A stretch of 60,886 nt of DNA from Candidatus Limnocylindria bacterium (GCA_036556985.1 DATBIK010000026.1:1-60886), one strand, 5' to 3'. Positions 338 to 56,434 are shown, counted from the stretch's first letter. Program-made: numbers and translations. The notes: generated by a model from the letters alone, not told the origin.

Positions 338-1912
<1,575 letters not shown>

Positions 1913-2401: not shown

Positions 2402-4354
2402 CTACCGCGCGTCGCGCATGGCCGGCACCAGCAGGCCGACCAGCCCGGCGGCGGCGATCATGGAGCCGCCCGCGATGAGCACGTTCGCCGGACCGATGAT
2501 CCCCGACAGCCATCCCGCCAGGCCCATGGACAGTGCCATGGCCCCGAAGGTCAGCGCCTGGCGGGTGGACACCACGCGGCCGAACAGCCGGGTGGGGGTG
2601 CGCTCCTGGAAGAGGGTGATCGTCGGCACCAGGTAGAGGAGGTTGGCGGCGCCGATGACGAAGAAGAGGCCGATGGCGATGTACGGGTCGGTCACCAGCC
2701 CGGCGGCGACCATGCCGGCCCCGAGCAGGATGAAGCCGGCGATGGTCATCGGTCCCTTTGGCGACCGCGTGAAGTACCCGCCGATGATCAGGCCACCCGC
2801 CACGCTGCCCAGGCCCAGGGCGCTCATCATCCAGCCGTAATTCTGCGGGAAGGGGATGACCGACTGGTCGAGCGTCTGCTGGGCGTAGAGGAATGCGCAC
2901 ACGATCTCCGCGCCGAACGCGAGCTGGGCGATGGTGCTCACGATGGTGTTCGCGAGGAGCTCGCGCTGGCCGGTGAGGAAGCGCCAGCCCTCGGCCATCT
3001 CGCGCCACACCGCGCGGACGCTGAACGGGACGACCTCCACCGCCTCCCTGGGCACGACCATGGCCGCGAGCAGCAGGGCCGATGCGACGTACGTCCCGGC
3101 GTCGAGCATGAAGGCCGCGGCGATCAGGCCGGCCAGCGCGGCCACGATGGCCGCCGCGACGGGTTGGCCCAGGACGTCGGCCAGTGTCTCGGACAGGGTG
3201 GAGGCGGAGTTCGCTGTGACGAGGTGCTCCTCGCGGACGATGGCCGGGACGATGGCCGTCTTGGCCGGGCGGAAGAGCAGGCCCACGGTCGCCACCAGGA
3301 AGGCGATGAAGAAGACGAGGGCCATGTGGACCTCGATGGCGAGCGGGACCAACAGGACGAGCCCGGCCCGCACGATGTCGCAGGCGATCATCGTGCGGCG
3401 GCGGTCCCAGCGGTCGACGAGGGCGCCGGCCAGTGGTCCGAGCAGGACGTTCGGCACGGCGGTCATGGCGAAGGCGATGCCCAGGTCCAGCGGCGTGCCG
3501 CGCTGCGTGACGAGCACGCCGAGCGCCACCTGGTGCACCCGGTCGCCGAAGAAGCTGATGAGCTGCCCCATCCACAGCAGGGAGAAGTTCCGGTTGCGGA
3601 CGAGGGCCAGGTACGGCGACTGCGGCCGCTCCTCGGGTTCGACCCGCTCGGCGGGGATGGCCGGCACGGTCGCCGCCGAGGCGCCCCCACCGGCCGGCCT
3701 GACGAGCGGTGGCGCGGCGGCGATCGCGGGCGCCGCGGCCGAGGCCATGACGGAGGCGGGGAACGGGTCGTTGGGCCGAGGACCGAACGTGACCAGCGGG
3801 CGCATCGGTGCGCCCGGGCGGGTCATGGTGTAGACGATGGTCCAGAACAGGCCAAGGGCCAGCAGCAGGTCGCCGATGCTGACCACGTCGCGGATGACGG
3901 GCAGCGGCAGCGGGACGACGTCGCCGAAGATCCCCCCGCGCGACACGAACTCGGCAACGGTGCTGGTGGGCATGAGGAAGTGGAACGCGTCGCCCGCCAC
4001 GGCATCGGGCTGGAAGCCGGCGGCCTCGAAGGCGCCCGGCCAGATCGGCATGCGACCGCCGTTGAGGAGGACGGCCAGGAAGTTCAGGCCGATGCCCACC
4101 GCCGCCACCTGGAGCCCGGGCACCCGCCAGTTGCCCCACAGGAACACGAAGATGAGGAAGTAGGCGGCCACGATCGCCCAGCCGATGGGCAGGTTGGTCG
4201 CGTCGTTCGTGCGCAGGAAGACGGCCCCGAAGCGGATGATCAGGGCGAGCAGCAGGACCCAGATCCAGCGGAGCTTCAGGTCTCCGAGACGGGGCAGGCC
4301 TCCTCCGGCCAGGGCGCCAACGATGAGCGCCAGGACGATGGTGCTAAGAAACAT
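2402..4354 (-). CDS. Fusion protein: N-terminal DUF5317-like membrane domain + C-terminal MFS transporter
   Basis: N-terminus MFLSTIVLALIVGALAGGGLPRLGDLKLRW...NGGRMPIW...VIRDVVSIGDLLLALGL recalls the DUF5317 family. A Pro/Ala linker follows, then an MFS core (NFSLLWMGQLISFFGD...GALVDRWDRRR) with 12 predicted TM helices. I prefer the ATG at 4354, 10 nt after the HD-GYP stop; the track ORF extends to 4447. Confidence 0.75.
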   Translation of the reverse strand: MFLSTIVLALIVGALAGGGLPRLGDLKLRWIWVLLLALIIRFGAVFLRTNDATNLPIGWAIVAAYFLIFVFLWGNWRVPGLQVAAVGIGLNFLAVLLNGGRMPIWPGAFEAAGFQPDAVAGDAFHFLMPTSTVAEFVSRGGIFGDVVPLPLPVIRDVVSIGDLLLALGLFWTIVYTMTRPGAPMRPLVTFGPRPNDPFPASVMASAAAPAIAAAPPLVRPAGGGASAATVPAIPAERVEPEERPQSPYLALVRNRNFSLLWMGQLISFFGDRVHQVALGVLVTQRGTPLDLGIAFAMTAVPNVLLGPLAGALVDRWDRRRTMIACDIVRAGLVLLVPLAIEVHMALVFFIAFLVATVGLLFRPAKTAIVPAIVREEHLVTANSASTLSETLADVLGQPVAAAIVAALAGLIAAAFMLDAGTYVASALLLAAMVVPREAVEVVPFSVRAVWREMAEGWRFLTGQRELLANTIVSTIAQLAFGAEIVCAFLYAQQTLDQSVIPFPQNYGWMMSALGLGSVAGGLIIGGYFTRSPKGPMTIAGFILLGAGMVAAGLVTDPYIAIGLFFVIGAANLLYLVPTITLFQERTPTRLFGRVVSTRQALTFGAMALSMGLAGWLSGIIGPANVLIAGGSMIAAAGLVGLLVPAMRDAR

Positions 4355-5798
4355 CGTCCGATGCGAGCATCGGCCTCGACTGACGGGACTCCGGCGGGCT
4401 CGGATCGGCAGCCGTGGCAGCGGCGGTGTCGGCTCCTTCGTCCGCATCCGACCCCGCGTCCGCCTGGGGCGGGCGGTCGCGCGGGTCCGGCGCGTGGAGC
4501 ATGGTGGGCAGCTCGTCCTCGCGGTCCGGCGGGCGGTCCAGGATCTCGCGCGGCAGGTTCACGAGCACCGGCACGATCTCCGGGTCGAACTGGATGCCGG
4601 TGTACTTCTCCAGCTCCGCCACCGCCTGCTCGTGGGTGAGGGGGGTCTTGCGGTACGGGCGGCTGGAGGTCATGGCCTCGTAGGCATCGGCGATGGTCAG
4701 GATGCGGGCCCCCAGCGGGATGTCGAGCGCCTCCACCCCGTCCGGGTAGCCGGAGCCGTTGAACCATTCGTGGTGGGCCTTGATCAGCGGCGCCTCCTCG
4801 GTGAGCTGCTTGGCCGGCGCCACGATCTCCGCACCGATGGTGGGGTGCTGGTTCATGAGGAAGCGCTCGTCCTTGTCGAGCGGCCCCTCCTTGAGGAGGA
4901 TGTTGTCGCGGATGCCGATCTTCCCCACGTCGTGGAGCAGGCCGGCCCACTGGATCTTCTCCACCTCGGGTTCCGGCAGCTTCATGACGCGCGCCATCTG
5001 TACGGAGATGTGGCTCACGCGGTTCGAGTGACCGCGGGTGTACTTGTCTCTCGCGTCGACGGCGTTGGCCAAGGCGCCGATGGTCTGCTCGAAGAGCTCC
5101 CTGGTCTCCACGTAGCGGTGGTACGCCAGGCGCGTCGTGAAGAGGGGGACGACGAAGAGGGGAGTGGCCCACCAGCCCACGCCATTGGGGAGGAGGAAGA
5201 TCTGCGCCATCAACCACGCGAGCGGCGCCAACCCCAACAGGCTTGCGAAGACCGCGCCTAGGTCTTGCGCCCAGACGGTTCGTATCGGGATGCCGGTCCG
5301 CGTGCTGACAGCCGCTAGGGCGAGGATGGCATTGGTCGCGTAGTAGACGCCGCTTCCAACAAGGAGGCCGAAGAATGTGAGGATCTCCGCCATCGGGGAT
5401 GCAAGGCCGATCGCTTCGCCACGCACGACCTCGAAAGCGGCTCCGCCAAGGACCACGGCGACAACAACGGCGGCATGGTTGAACAGAGTGCCGTACCAAG
5501 GGATCTGGCGACGGACCTCGCGATAGTCCGTGGTGCCAATCGCAGCGACTACCGCTGCAGCAAGAGGACCGCCTAGCACGAGGCTCGCAAGAAAGGGGGC
5601 AGCACTTACCGAGACGACCGTTCCGTGCGGAAGACGAACAGGCAGGGCGGCCCCGACGAGGGTGAGGCCTATCCAGAAGAGGATCCCTAGCAGGCCGCCG
5701 ATCTCATCCCGGAGCGGGAATAGAAAGGCCGCCGCCGCGGCAGCAACTGCGGCGGCGGCGGTACATGCGGCTATCAGAATCCGGACGTTCGAGTTCAC
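4344..5798 (-). CDS. Membrane-anchored HD-GYP domain protein (putative c-di-GMP phosphodiesterase)
   Basis: Multi-TM N-terminus, then HSNRVSHISV...LLHDVGKIGI...HHEWFNGSGYPDG (HD and GYP motifs). GTG start at 5798. Confidence 0.85.
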   Translation of the reverse strand: MNSNVRILIAACTAAAAVAAAAAAFLFPLRDEIGGLLGILFWIGLTLVGAALPVRLPHGTVVSVSAAPFLASLVLGGPLAAAVVAAIGTTDYREVRRQIPWYGTLFNHAAVVVAVVLGGAAFEVVRGEAIGLASPMAEILTFFGLLVGSGVYYATNAILALAAVSTRTGIPIRTVWAQDLGAVFASLLGLAPLAWLMAQIFLLPNGVGWWATPLFVVPLFTTRLAYHRYVETRELFEQTIGALANAVDARDKYTRGHSNRVSHISVQMARVMKLPEPEVEKIQWAGLLHDVGKIGIRDNILLKEGPLDKDERFLMNQHPTIGAEIVAPAKQLTEEAPLIKAHHEWFNGSGYPDGVEALDIPLGARILTIADAYEAMTSSRPYRKTPLTHEQAVAELEKYTGIQFDPEIVPVLVNLPREILDRPPDREDELPTMLHAPDPRDRPPQADAGSDADEGADTAAATAADPSPPESRQSRPMLASDDVS

Positions 5799-5945: not shown

Positions 5946-6216
5946 GCTTGACTCCTGGGACTGGTTACCAGCCCTTGATTGACTGTCTTGCCATCAGAAG
6001 GTGCCCTCTTCTGAACTGAAATAGACACAACCGACACACTCCGGTGACGGAACGGTCGGTTGCACTACATGCTCCCCGACGACCTAAGTGCCCACATTCG
6101 GTCGGCGGATCGATGCACCCTAGCTCTCAGCCAGTACCACGGCAGTACCAAAGTACTGGTCTGGAGGGAACTCTACTCGCCGACGAGGCGGGAAGTCAAT
6201 ACCCGCCCGGCAAGAG

Positions 6217-15741: not shown

Positions 15742-15917
15742 CCGATCTATCGGCGGAATACGGCCTGGGTGGCGGTGGCGGCGCGGCATGGCCGATCTAT
15801 CGGTACATGCGCAGCGTGAGGTGCTCCCGGAGGCGCCGTTCCGGCGTGCGCCGTGTCGATAGATCGGTAGAACGAAGCCCAATGAGACCTTCCGGTGCGG
15901 TTCGCTCGATAGATCGG
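15742..15917. repeat. Array of four CCGAT-NN-ATCGG palindromes (variant of the REP-like family)
   Basis: CCGATCTATCGG at 15742-15753 and 15792-15803; TCGATAGATCGG at 15856-15867 and 15906-15917. Spacing is 50/64/50 bp. The segment AGCGTGAGGTGC between sites 2 and 3 matches the inter-hairpin segment of the REP-like loci. Confidence 0.7.
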
Positions 15918-16011
15918 CAATGGATGGATGGCGCCAGACAGCAAGGCGCCGGAGCCCGAAGGCCCCGGCGCCCGTGATTGGTTGTCGGGATCGCTGCTGC
16001 GACCGGCCCCT

Positions 16012-16083
16012 CTAGAGGACGCCGAGCAGCCAGAGGATCAGAAGGATCAGCAGGATCGTCCCGATGATTCCCAGTCCGAACAT
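16012..16083 (-). CDS. Micro-ORF, 23-aa hydrophobic peptide MFGLGIIGTILLILLILWLLGVL
   Basis: Not in the ORF track because it is too short. ATG at 16083 has GGAGGAAT 5 nt upstream. Paralogous to the peptide at 56103-56177, and the ILLILWLLG motif recalls lmo0937-type small membrane proteins. Confidence 0.55.
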   Translation of the reverse strand: MFGLGIIGTILLILLILWLLGVL

Positions 16084-16148
16084 CCGGATTCCTCCCTGGT
16101 TCGTTCCGTCGTCGGCGGGATGGGTTTCCCGCGTCCACTCGCAGGCAA

Positions 16149-16165
16149 CGCACGACGCGTGCCAA
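16149..16165 (-). promoter_or_regulatory. Sigma-54-type -24/-12 promoter (P1)
   Basis: Minus strand reads TTGGCACGCGTCGTGCG, against consensus YTGGCACGrNNNTTGCW. GG and GC are at the exact consensus spacing. It lies 65 nt upstream of ATG 16083 and just after the surE stop. Confidence 0.55.
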
Positions 16166-49262: not shown

Positions 49263-49424
49263 TCAGTCGTCGTCCTTCTTCGTCTCGCCCTTCTCGGCGC
49301 GCTCCTTGTTCACGGTGCGGGCCGCGCGCTCCTCCGCCTCGTCCTTGCTCACGCCGCGATCCTCGTACGAGTCCTTGATGTGCTCGTACTGTCGCTCGCG
49401 CTTGTCGCTCCAACCTTCCGGCAT
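49263..49424 (-). CDS. Small hydrophilic protein, 53 aa (MPEGWSDKRERQYEHIKDSYEDRGVSKDEAEERAARTVNKERAEKGETKKDDD)
   Basis: C-terminal segment of track ORF 49263..49952. ATG 49424 has an AGGGGAG SD. The sequence recalls a conserved small stress-associated family whose name I cannot give with confidence. Confidence 0.6.
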   Translation of the reverse strand: MPEGWSDKRERQYEHIKDSYEDRGVSKDEAEERAARTVNKERAEKGETKKDDD

Positions 49425-49467
49425 GTCCGTACTCCCCTGCGTCCTCGGACCGGCATGGACCGACGTC

Positions 49468-49484
49468 AGCAGCGCGCGTGCCAC
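49468..49484 (-). promoter_or_regulatory. Sigma-54-type -24/-12 promoter (P3)
   Basis: Minus strand reads GTGGCACGCGCGCTGCT. It lies 43 nt upstream of ATG 49424. Confidence 0.55.
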
Positions 49485-49488
49485 GCCG

Positions 49489-49505
49489 GTGGCCCGCCGC
49501 TTGCA
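49489..49505 (+). promoter_or_regulatory. Sigma-54-type -24/-12 promoter (P4)
   Basis: GTGGCCCGCCGCTTGCA. It lies 46 nt upstream of ATG 49552 and is back to back with P3. Confidence 0.55.
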
Positions 49506-49551
49506 ACGAAGGTCCGCGGAACAACGAAGCAATCCCGCATAGGAGCACGCA

Positions 49552-50016
49552 ATGAGCACCGTCGAGAAGTCAATCGACGTCAACGTCCCGATCCGCACCG
49601 CATACGACCAGTGGACCCAGTTCGAGGAATTCCCGCGCTTCATGGAGGGCGTGAAGTCGGTCACCCAGGCCGATGACACCCATCTCCGCTGGGTCGCCGA
49701 GGTCGCCGGCCAGGAGAAGGCATGGGACGCCGAGATCACTGAGCAGCATCCGGACGAGCGGGTCGCGTGGACGAGCACGAGCGGCGCGCGCAACGCCGGC
49801 GTCGTGACGTTCCACCGGCTCGACGACAACACCACGCGGGTCATGCTCCAGCTGGATGCCGACCCCGAGGGCCTCGTGGAGAACGTCGGCGATGCGCTCG
49901 GCTTCCTCGACCGCCGCGTCGAAGGCGACCTCGAGCGCTTCAAGGAGTTCATCGAGTCGCGCGGCGTCGAGACCGGCGCCTGGCGCGGCGAGGTCGAGAG
50001 CCCCTCGGCCCGCTGA
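49552..50016 (+). CDS. SRPBCC-superfamily (cyclase/dehydrase-like) protein
   Basis: VEKSIDVNVPIRTAYDQWTQFEEFPRFMEGVKSV...RVAWTSTSG...VVTFHRL. Confidence 0.75.
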   Translation: MSTVEKSIDVNVPIRTAYDQWTQFEEFPRFMEGVKSVTQADDTHLRWVAEVAGQEKAWDAEITEQHPDERVAWTSTSGARNAGVVTFHRLDDNTTRVMLQLDADPEGLVENVGDALGFLDRRVEGDLERFKEFIESRGVETGAWRGEVESPSAR

Positions 50017-55208: not shown

Positions 55209-55284
55209 TGGCGCGCCGGACAGGATTCGAACCTGCGACCTTCGGCTCCGGAGGCCGACGCTCTATCCACTGAGCTACCGGCGC
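55209..55284 (-). tRNA. tRNA-Arg (anticodon CCG)
   Basis: The minus strand folds by eye as a cloverleaf: GCGCCGG-TA-GCTC-AGTGGATA-GAGC-G-TCGGC-CTCCGGA-GCCGA-AGGTC-GCAGG-TTCGAAT-CCTGT-CCGGCGC-G-CCA. The CCA end is encoded. Confidence 0.9.
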
Positions 55285-55298
55285 GCGGGAGCGCCAGT

Positions 55299-55934
55299 CT
55301 AGCGCGCGGCGCCTCGCAGCGCTCCCGTGAGCTCGTCGTTGGCCGGGTCGAACACGGCGCACTGCACCGAATGGTCGCCCGCATCCCAGCCCTCACGTGT
55401 GGGCTGGAACCAGAAGACGTCCAAAGCGGATTCGCTGTACGAACGACCGATGTATTCAGCGAACGCGGGAAGGCAGTTCTCGTCGAGCCAGGTGACGAAG
55501 GCCGCGTCCGCCGGATAGGTCGCCGAGGCCACGGTCCCGATGTGCATCAGCTCGAACTCGTGCGGTTCGGTACACGGGCGGGCCGTGATCTCGTCGACCG
55601 CCTCGTCCTCGTCGAGCTCACCCTTCAGATCGAAACAGTCGCCCACGCGAAGGTCCGAGATGGCGAGATTGCCGGATCGGCTGATGCTGCCGTCGTCATC
55701 GCGCTGGGCATTGAAGATCAGCCCGCCGACCGAGACGGCGACCACGAGGATCACCCACCAGAATCGGCCAAGGCGCTGGATCCAGCGGCCTCCCGGGGAG
55801 GTCTCTTCGGCGGCCACGGGGAAGGGCCCGTCCTCGGCCGCCGGCTGCTCTCCGCGGGGCAGCCCGCAGGACTGGCAGGCGGCGAAGGCCTCCTCGTTCG
55901 ACGCGAAGCAGCGCAGGCAGACCCATCGGGCCAT
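55299..55934 (-). CDS. Zinc-ribbon + TM + septum-formation-family domain protein
   Basis: N-terminal WVCLRCFASNEEAFAACQSCG, one TM helix, then VGDCF...RPCTEPHEFEL typical of the Septum_form domain. ATG 55934 has a GGAGGG SD. Confidence 0.65.
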   Translation of the reverse strand: MARWVCLRCFASNEEAFAACQSCGLPRGEQPAAEDGPFPVAAEETSPGGRWIQRLGRFWWVILVVAVSVGGLIFNAQRDDDGSISRSGNLAISDLRVGDCFDLKGELDEDEAVDEITARPCTEPHEFELMHIGTVASATYPADAAFVTWLDENCLPAFAEYIGRSYSESALDVFWFQPTREGWDAGDHSVQCAVFDPANDELTGALRGAAR

Positions 55935-56038
55935 GGGCGATTCCCTCCGTGGCACCCCAAGCGGGCGTGCCGAAGGCTAGGCGCGGCTGTGCTCGGCGGA
56001 AACGGGACTTTCGGTTGAGGCCGATCGGCGAGCAGGCG

Positions 56039-56055
56039 CTGGCACGCCTAGTGCA
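56039..56055 (+). promoter_or_regulatory. Sigma-54-type -24/-12 promoter (P2)
   Basis: CTGGCACGCCTAGTGCA matches 15 of the 17 consensus positions. It lies 47 nt upstream of ATG 56103. Confidence 0.6.
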
Positions 56056-56102
56056 TTTCCTCGTGTCGGGGAACAACACGACCCGCATACAGGAGGAATG
56101 CC

Positions 56103-56177
56103 ATGTACTGGGGTGGAGGGATCATTGGACTGATCCTGCTGATCCTGCTGATCCTGCTGCTCACGGGGAACCTGTAA
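56103..56177 (+). CDS. Micro-ORF, 24-aa hydrophobic peptide MYWGGGIIGLILLILLILLLTGNL
   Basis: Not in the ORF track. AGGAGGAAT lies 4 nt upstream. Paralogue of 16012-16083. Contains 3 x 9-bp CTGATCCTG. Confidence 0.55.
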   Translation: MYWGGGIIGLILLILLILLLTGNL

Positions 56178-56202
56178 GCAGCCGAGACGCACAAAGCACG
56201 GC

Positions 56203-56351
56203 ATAGAAGAAGGCCCCTCCGAAGAGGGGCCTTCTCGTTGCTGCCGGATTCGCTAACCACAGGGGCATCTTTCACGCGCGGTTTCCCGCACTACCCTAAC
56301 CCAAACCTACCCATGGCCCTGCGATCAGTGGTGAATCGCTGTGCGAACAGC
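56203..56351 (-). ncRNA. Candidate sRNA of about 150 nt, unassigned family
   Basis: The minus strand has TTGACC (56387-56382), an 18-bp spacer and TATCAT (56363-56358). The transcript would end at the 56234-56209 hairpin. It holds an internal hairpin CGCTGT-tcgc-ACAGCG and the G-tract run GGGTAGGTTTGGGTTAGGGTAGTGCGGG. There is no convincing ORF, and local GC is below background. Confidence 0.3.
56209..56234. terminator. Bidirectional hairpin terminator
   Basis: GAAGGCCCCTC-cgaa-GAGGGGCCTTC, an 11-bp perfect stem. On the minus strand it is followed by TTCTATG. Confidence 0.65.
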
Positions 56352-56434
56352 GAACACATGATAGGGCTCGCCCCCTTCAGGGGTCAACGGTCTGGGACTA
56401 AGAATCCTTTACATTTCAGAGCGGTACGGACGGG

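Follow-up and report, generated by a model that had tools for sequence, protein, structure and literature searches.

The DNA analyzed here (the window, 60,886 nucleotides) comes from a Candidatus Limnocylindria bacterium (GCA_036556985.1 DATBIK010000026.1:1-60886), and it also occurs in soil and rhizosphere metagenomes. It carries two unannotated open reading frames (ORFs) for very short hydrophobic peptides, pep1 and pep2, which a first-pass annotation had proposed to be paralogous; both are present at the places proposed, are ∼67% identical, and match the same repeat of the Pfam family DUF3309. The gene just upstream of pep1 is surE, whose product shares 82 to 89% identity with the SurE proteins of metagenome-assembled genomes (MAGs) from Candidatus Limnocylindria and other Chloroflexota. 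The ORFs, their promoters, and their predicted leaders are as follows.

16083 to 16012, minus strand: pep1 ORF, 23 aa plus stop, MFGLGIIGTILLILLILWLLGVL
16149 to 16165, minus strand: pep1 promoter, sigma-54-type, TTGGCACGCGTCGTGCG (-24 GG, -12 GC), beginning 15 nt past the surE stop codon
16084 to 16138, minus strand: predicted pep1 5' leader, ∼55 nt, with Shine-Dalgarno (SD) sequence GGAGG at 16095 to 16091 and an inferred transcription start site (TSS)
56103 to 56177, plus strand: pep2 ORF, 24 aa plus stop, MYWGGGIIGLILLILLILLLTGNL
56039 to 56055, plus strand: pep2 promoter, sigma-54-type, CTGGCACGCCTAGTGCA
56066 to 56102, plus strand: predicted pep2 5' leader, with SD GGAGG at 56092 to 56096, and containing GGAACAAC and CCCGCATA

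Both ORFs have a strong SD, GGAGG, located 6 to 7 nt upstream of the ATG, and the 8-mer in which it was noted to be embedded, GGAGGAAT, occurs only twice in the window, each copy 6 to 7 nt 5' of one of these ATGs. Genes this short are missed by standard callers, and databases hold these ORFs only where a spurious upstream in-frame start lengthens them enough to be called. The N-terminal extensions created in this way are mutually unrelated and not conserved and the 23-aa core is constant, an argument for the ATG following the SD as the true start.

Orthologues with the same frame and length are present in ∼20 Limnocylindria genomes and metagenome contigs, and they keep a synonymous pattern of substitution, with variation mainly at third codon positions. 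The pep1 orthologues were chosen by synteny as the region downstream of surE, without any peptide-sequence filter, and pep1 is found there in all five of the closest relatives (complete in L001 and L003 to L005, and cut by the contig end in L002). Among the five distinct pep1 coding sequences, 12 of the 16 variable columns are third codon positions, and 10 codons vary only synonymously versus 3 with conservative changes (L/V and V/A); across the alignment of these relatives the promoter core and the ORF are kept while the leader and the 3' region diverge. The neighbors of pep1-type genes differ by lineage, being surE, a LOG-family gene, or a RES-domain gene.

The pep2 loci were gathered with a degenerate DNA pattern for GIIGxILLILLIL, applied to 185,579 species, each represented by one genome, and yielding 16 loci. 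This pattern fixes 13 core residues, such that only the 11 remaining codons are an unbiased sample, and 8 of these vary only synonymously and 1 has a residue change. Taken over the whole ORF, 13 of 17 variable columns are third codon positions, 13 codons are synonymous-only versus 1 that is residue-changing, and the length never varies (14 loci); the peptide is identical in 12 of these 14, with W3 replaced by I or V in the other two. The loci are all in Limnocylindria or other Chloroflexota MAGs, save for one contig binned as Zixibacteria. Pep2 is 96 to 100% identical in loci where the neighboring PPIase is 51 to 68% identical and the neighboring DUF885 protein is 65 to 81% identical, and it is thus under unusually strong constraint. 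Two other probes were less productive, as a concatenated peptide probe retrieved only pep1-type ORFs, and the Septum_form-domain neighbor, used as a probe for pep2 orthologues, gave distant matches only. Judged from these substitution patterns, pep1 and pep2 are real and strongly constrained microprotein genes, under purifying selection at the amino acid level, and they represent a clean and well-supported case of microproteins being overlooked in a class of soil bacteria that is abundant and uncultured.

The peptide genes are transcribed in soil. Contigs of soil metatranscriptome X25 cover 16010 to 16119, spanning the pep1 ORF and leader, with a word depth of 3 to 36 and with the pep1 promoter and surE uncovered, and contigs of X37 and X43 cover 56098 to 56359, from just 5' of the pep2 ATG onward, leaving the promoter region uncovered. 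These contigs are unstranded and derive from related strains, and what they document is expression, not the position of 5' ends. The pep1 promoter is crossed by a single contig, of 'WGS RANDOM' library origin, that may represent either read-through or DNA.

As first noted, both ORFs lie behind sigma-54-type promoters, with TGGCACG-N4-xTGC at the expected places and conserved in orthologous loci. The core TGGCAC-N6-TGC is found three times in the window versus 0.49 expected, and all three sites are intergenic and face a small gene.

16164 to 16150, minus strand: TGGCAC-N6-TGC preceding pep1
56040 to 56054, plus strand: TGGCAC-N6-TGC preceding pep2
49483 to 49469, minus strand: TGGCAC-N6-TGC preceding a 53-aa ORF

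The promoter comparison includes 21 loci, 19 of them identified by synteny or pattern and two being metagenomic pep1-type loci with LOG-family and RES-domain neighbors. The motif (T)TGGCACG-N4-(G/C)TGC(A/G) is present in 20 of the 21 and always faces the ORF, and the spacer and leader vary freely. For pep1, TGGCACGC-N3-GTGC is invariant across six orthologous loci with diverging flanks, and for pep2, TGGCACG-N4-[G/C]TGCA is present in 12 of 13 orthologous loci, with L088 having a weaker version, TGGCATCGCCTGTGCT (a TGGCATC variant). The distance from the -12 GC to the ATG is 37 to 57 nt for pep2 and 61 to 70 nt for pep1, and is ∼37 to 40 nt in the two metagenomic pep1-type loci. Compared with the sigma-54 consensus TGGCACG-N4-TTGCW, the promoters have the -24 GG and -12 GC exactly 10 nt apart and oriented toward the gene, but the base preceding TGC is usually G or C and not the consensus T. 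A strict form of the motif, TGGCAC-N5-NTGC[AT], occurs in 206 kb of Limnocylindria DNA only before pep2 and the 53-aa gene, and it skips pep1 because the pep1 promoter ends in TGCG. Inspection of the upstream regions by eye revealed no recognizable activator site. In several species, the end of a divergent tRNA-Arg gene is ∼30 to 100 nt away from the pep2 promoter; in the window this gene is tRNA-Arg(CCG) (55209 to 55284, minus strand), which is divergent upstream of pep2 in most Limnocylindria and is separated from it in this genome by a gene with a Septum_form domain (55299 to 55955).

The window also codes for a protein of the type required for transcription from such promoters.

338 to 1912, minus strand: response-regulator-type sigma-54 activator, with REC, AAA+ sigma-54 interaction, and HTH_8 domains

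This protein matches Sigma54_activat with 239.8 bits, has a Walker A motif (GESGTGKE) and a GSFTGA loop, and belongs to the NtrC/AtoC family, yet it scores below every equivalog cutoff; it is only a candidate regulator of the peptides. Sigma-54 itself is on record for some Chloroflexi (PMC3162934). No rpoN gene was found in the DNA examined, and that this organism uses sigma-54 is suggested by the presence of the activator gene together with the promoters.

A very improbable reading of these loci is that their functional products are small RNAs, with the ORFs being incidental or secondary, and that TGGCACG-N4-GTGC is a palindromic operator for a repressor or an activator. The motif is indeed partly palindromic in many loci, the transcripts are short (∼190 nt) with their own terminators, and neither the TSS nor rpoN is seen directly. 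However, the substitutions track codon positions, and the leader and 3' untranslated region diverge freely while the peptide is frozen. An operator of the form GCAC-N5-GTGC is similarly disfavored by the constant orientation of the motif, with TGG always on the 5' side and the motif facing the gene, and by CTGCA variants in L086 and L098 that break the palindrome but retain GG-N10-GC. The activator gene in the window also speaks for sigma-54 promoters, as do the canonical promoters of the SRPBCC orthologues (TGGCGCG-N4-CTTGCA), which are found in 32 of 77 orthologue loci from soil metagenomes, 38 to 54 nt 5' of the ATG. In the window, the SRPBCC promoter is one of a back-to-back pair, the other being that of the 53-aa gene.

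49469 to 49505, no strand assigned: two back-to-back sigma-54-type promoters, 6 bp apart
Within this pair, minus strand: promoter TGGCACGCGCGCTGCT, driving the hydrophilic 53-aa gene at 49424 to 49263
Within this pair, plus strand: promoter TGGCCCGCCGCTTGCA at 49490, driving the SRPBCC gene at 49552 to 50016

With this arrangement, the upstream activator region of each promoter would fall within the transcription unit of the other. The 53-aa protein (MPEGWSDKRERQYEHIK...) is highly charged and hydrophilic and is a member of a large family with >2,400 database matches and no Pfam domain, which is labeled 'plasmid stabilization system protein ParE' by JGI, probably a mislabel; comparison of the 53-aa protein with PDB gave nothing significant. 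The SRPBCC and 53-aa gene families have very deep coverage in the same metatranscriptome runs, with the promoter gap between them (49422 to 49557) empty. As the same promoter type precedes them, the SRPBCC and 53-aa genes are probably coregulated with the peptide genes, which provides the sketch of a sigma-54 regulon in Chloroflexota, a phylum whose sigma-54 biology is, to our knowledge, essentially unstudied.

The leaders of these genes were initially described as sharing conserved blocks, with a hint of post-transcriptional control. The sharing is borne out within this genome, where GGAACAAC (four copies in the window) and CCCGCATA (two copies) are common to the pep2 and SRPBCC leaders, and the pep1 leader has GGAACGAAC instead. 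The blocks are not part of a conserved cassette, as neither GGAACAAC nor CCCGCATA is present in any of 13 pep2 orthologue leaders or in the leader of any of the 32 SRPBCC orthologues from soil metagenomes that have the sigma-54-type promoter, and among the pep1 orthologues the SD alone is conserved in the leader. The leaders also fold no better than shuffled sequences (z of -0.72 for pep1 and -0.78 for pep2). A conserved leader element was rejected on these two observations, and on the available alignments the conserved cassette is composed of promoter, SD, ORF, and terminator. A further proposal was of in-frame slippage at a repeat in pep2. Three copies of CTGATCCTG are present (at 56130, 56139, and 56148) and are the codons for LIL-LIL-LIL, but slippage is rejected, since the length is invariant in all 14 loci compared and in a metagenomic pep2-like ORF.

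Both peptide genes are followed by G+C-rich hairpins resembling intrinsic terminators, and that of pep2 is shared with a candidate small RNA (sRNA) gene in the opposite orientation.

15936 to 15972, minus strand: pep1 terminator hairpin, GGCGCCGGGGCC-TTCG-GGCTCCGGCGCC, followed by a T-poor tail
56206 to 56240, used in both directions: G+C-rich terminator hairpin, GAAGGCCCCTC-CGAA-GAGGGGCCTTC, common to pep2 (plus strand) and the convergent sRNA candidate (minus strand)
56356 to 56202, minus strand: sRNA candidate, ∼155 nt, convergent to pep2 (56202 to 56387 with its promoter)
56387 to 56358, minus strand: sigma-70-like sRNA promoter, with TTGACC at 56387 to 56382, an 18-nt spacer, and TATCAT at 56363 to 56358

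The pep1 hairpin was not called by a consensus terminator scan, and the pep1 orthologues have a hairpin at the equivalent position with a different sequence. Farther downstream, the convergent intergenic region at 15742 to 15917 contains four copies of a near-palindromic 12-mer (CCGATCTATCGG / TCGATAGATCGG), two direct and two inverted, at spacings of 50, 64, and 50 nt; these are absent from the orthologous loci and could be either a small insertion or an array of operators.

The ∼190-nt block immediately following pep2 has 86 to 92% nucleotide identity in 12 loci, far above that of the pep2 leader. Besides the window, the sRNA candidate is present in L086 to L091, L093, L095, and L097 to L100. 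Its promoter has conserved hexamers with a spacer that varies from 17 to 18 nt, its 12-bp helix P2 is paired in 100% of the sequences with two compensatory and several wobble changes, and it contains a G-rich stretch, GGGUAGGUUUGGGUUAGGGUAG. It corresponds to no Rfam family, the Rfam matches in the pep2 region being terminator-driven and subthreshold only. Metatranscriptome contigs cover it from 56206 to 56359. The adjacency of pep2 and the sRNA candidate belongs to a general syntenic block of pep2, sRNA, PPIase, and DUF885 genes, and the full Limnocylindria block is also carried by DASRYM010000039.1 (L095), which was binned as Candidatus Zixiibacteriota; because the synteny is the same, this contig is probably misbinned.

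The first-pass annotation suggested that the peptides are either small membrane stress modulators or type-I-toxin-like. In the toxin scenario, the peptides would depolarize membranes and be restrained post-transcriptionally, with the convergent sRNA as the antitoxin of pep2. Like the type I toxins (Ibs, Fst/Ldr, BsrG, and TxpA), the peptides are very short, extremely hydrophobic, and uncharged, most closely recalling the Ibs or Fst type, and in the window and its closest relatives the conserved sRNA uses the pep2 terminator, resembling 3'-overlapping type I pairs. However, in 7 of 12 species, the more distant ones, the sRNA and pep2 are 70 to 280 nt apart and have separate hairpins, and the antisense overlap is therefore not conserved. 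Predicted duplex energies of the sRNA with the peptide mRNAs are no better than with shuffled targets, in a crude calculation using whole-length duplexfold and mononucleotide shuffles. Pep1 lacks an antisense partner altogether, and searches of the pep1 and pep2 loci for antisense promoters of the sigma-70-like type found none. The conserved cis-encoded antisense or overlapping RNA expected for a type I system was thus not found, the overlap at pep2 being confined to a subset of species and showing no pairing signal. Moreover, the strong SD is not accompanied by a sequestering leader structure, the peptide genes are single-copy, core, and syntenic genes under extreme purifying selection across a class and with promoters predicted to be activator dependent, and neither peptide matches a PADLOC defense-system model. 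Type I toxicity is thus quite improbable, and with the adjacency attributable to general synteny, a role for the sRNA as an antitoxin or regulator of pep2 was rejected; the sRNA candidate is probably not part of the peptide system. Of the two suggestions made initially, the membrane or stress microprotein is the most plausible reading, as neither a conserved antisense partner nor any other type-I-toxin hallmark was seen.

The closest relatives of the peptides are the DUF3309 (PF11752) proteins. Pep2 matches the Pfam model with 21.6 bits (E value of 2.4e-4) at model positions 28 to 50, and pep1 with 16 bits (E value of 0.014) at positions 31 to 50, with neither reaching the gathering threshold of 22.3 bits. 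The full model has 50 positions, with two repeats and a PxWPxSRxWGYxPSG loop, and only its second repeat is present in the peptides. Alignment of the peptides to DUF3309 repeat 2 with hhalign gives a probability of 95.9% and an E value of 5.6e-9. In the other direction, a peptide profile searched against 1.84 billion representative proteins gives 164 matches at an E value of ≤1e-3, nearly all of which are the final 23 to 24 residues of overextended ORFs; where two stretches are matched, the protein is a genuine DUF3309 member (Pfam scores of 40 to 86 bits), and the profile evidence for homology of the repeat unit is thereby reciprocal. Some DUF3309 second repeats are nearly identical to pep1 (for example, ...GSIGTILLIILILWLLGVI), and further single-repeat forms occur in metagenomes, including MRAGYAPIGIIGTIVLIVLILWLLGAF, which is above the Pfam cutoff, and MNRNGGLGIVGVI...KL; P0115, a related single-repeat metagenomic peptide, scores 27.8 bits and exceeds the DUF3309 threshold. 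Searches of PHROGs (the peptides and the 53-aa protein), PADLOC (likewise both), and NCBIfam (the peptides) returned nothing significant.

DUF3309 proteins, known from Proteobacteria, Acidobacteriota, Verrucomicrobiota, and Planctomycetota, are membrane proteins of ∼50 aa with two helices, whereas pep1 and pep2 are from Chloroflexota. The peptides share with them the C-terminal repeat G-x-(I/L)-G-x-I-L-L-I-L-L-I-L-(W/L)-L-L-G-x-(L/I), and the YWGGG of pep2 matches the WGYxPSGG linker ahead of repeat 2. They differ in having one repeat in 23 to 24 aa rather than two in ∼50 aa, in lacking the P-x-W-P-x-S-R-x-W-G-Y loop, the C-terminal Arg/Lys, and any charged residue, and in consistently having sigma-54-type promoters. 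Because they correspond to the second repeat of the family, pep1 and pep2 are, by sequence relationship, single-repeat versions of DUF3309. A strong sigma-54-like promoter is present 50 to 90 nt 5' of the ATG at 6 of 80 two-repeat DUF3309 loci from other phyla, gathered with a single-sequence query, versus 2 of 80 control stretches, and the association of DUF3309 with sigma-54, as seen in this sample, is one that recurs but is not general. What is new is the single-repeat, sigma-54-linked variant of DUF3309, in a phylum for which neither has been described. DUF3309 has no assigned function, and its only mentions in the literature searched were one transcriptome table and one secretome list; any physiological role for the peptides is therefore conjecture. 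The peptides nonetheless tie this family of unknown function to a minimal one-helix form and a promoter of the activator-dependent type, which provides an experimental entry point.

We consider it rather probable that pep1 and pep2 are translated, stand-alone, single-helix microprotein genes that are induced through sigma-54 in response to a signal, and that they serve a membrane or stress role. In each cassette, a sigma-54 promoter would be followed by a short leader that is unstructured and has a strong SD, then by a 23- or 24-codon ORF and an intrinsic terminator. The predicted peptide is a single transmembrane helix without charge, capped N-terminally by a glycine-rich segment (GxGIIG) and with (ILL)n as its core. 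Transcription would be by RNA polymerase with sigma-54 and an ATP-hydrolyzing activator, and because sigma-54 transcription requires such an activator, the peptides would be made only on signal, probably along with the SRPBCC protein and the hydrophilic 53-aa protein. The products are then expected to insert into the cytoplasmic membrane and to act through specific helix-helix packing, either with a partner in the membrane or in self- or hetero-oligomers resembling the hairpin of DUF3309. Specific packing is suggested because even the I/L/V identities are frozen; the frozen I, L, and G positions point to a defined partner or oligomer rather than to a generic anchor, and the lack of charge together with the kinship to a two-helix hairpin suggests a self- or heterodimer that mimics DUF3309. 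Physiologically, the peptides may adjust the membrane in a stress or dormancy-type response, and they are most likely conditionally induced single-pass membrane microproteins in a small sigma-54 regulon with the SRPBCC and 53-aa proteins.

Several families of stress-induced small membrane proteins have similar attributes, including the Pmp3/YqaE proteolipids, the lmo0937 family, GlsB/YeaQ/YmgE, and PspG, which is sigma-54 dependent. These are likewise small, hydrophobic, and induced by alternative sigma factors alongside hydrophilic or SRPBCC-type stress proteins, and the ILLILWLLG-like motif of the peptides recalls the lmo0937 family. Unlike the peptides, they have at least two helices and flanking charges, and no significant Pfam or NCBIfam profile match of the peptides to these families was found.

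The frozen positions also bear on a different role, in which the peptides would not be general modulators of membrane or stress but would each serve one particular membrane complex (for example, a transporter, a respiratory complex, or a sensor kinase) as an accessory subunit or assembly factor. This mode of action is common among bacterial microproteins of similar size, as in KdpF, CydX, AcrZ, and MgrB, and the fact that every I, L, and G is absolutely conserved points to a fixed partner for packing. However, the peptide genes are monocistronic and have no conserved membrane-protein neighbor, and homology to the free-standing two-helix DUF3309 proteins favors self-association, such that we regard this role as unlikely though not far-fetched.

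A rather improbable but more specific version of the self-association model has pep1 and pep2 each as one half of a DUF3309-type hairpin, not fused to the other. With no charged residue, and hence no positive-inside bias, each could insert in either orientation, and the peptides would form antiparallel hetero- or homodimers, with coinduction from their matching sigma-54 promoters making both halves available simultaneously. If true, the peptides would represent a living 'prefusion' or postfission stage of a membrane protein family, and they would be the core of an undescribed sigma-54 regulon (pep1, pep2, the 53-aa hydrophilin-like protein, and SRPBCC) that is turned on in situ by soil Limnocylindria.

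Elsewhere in the window, a c-di-GMP-II riboswitch is present at 6045 to 6129 (minus strand; Rfam score of 56.4 bits), upstream of a gene at 4344 to 5798 (minus strand). The product of this gene has HD/HD_5 domains and a weak, subthreshold match to MASE9, and it is probably an HD-GYP-type phosphodiesterase under the control of c-di-GMP.
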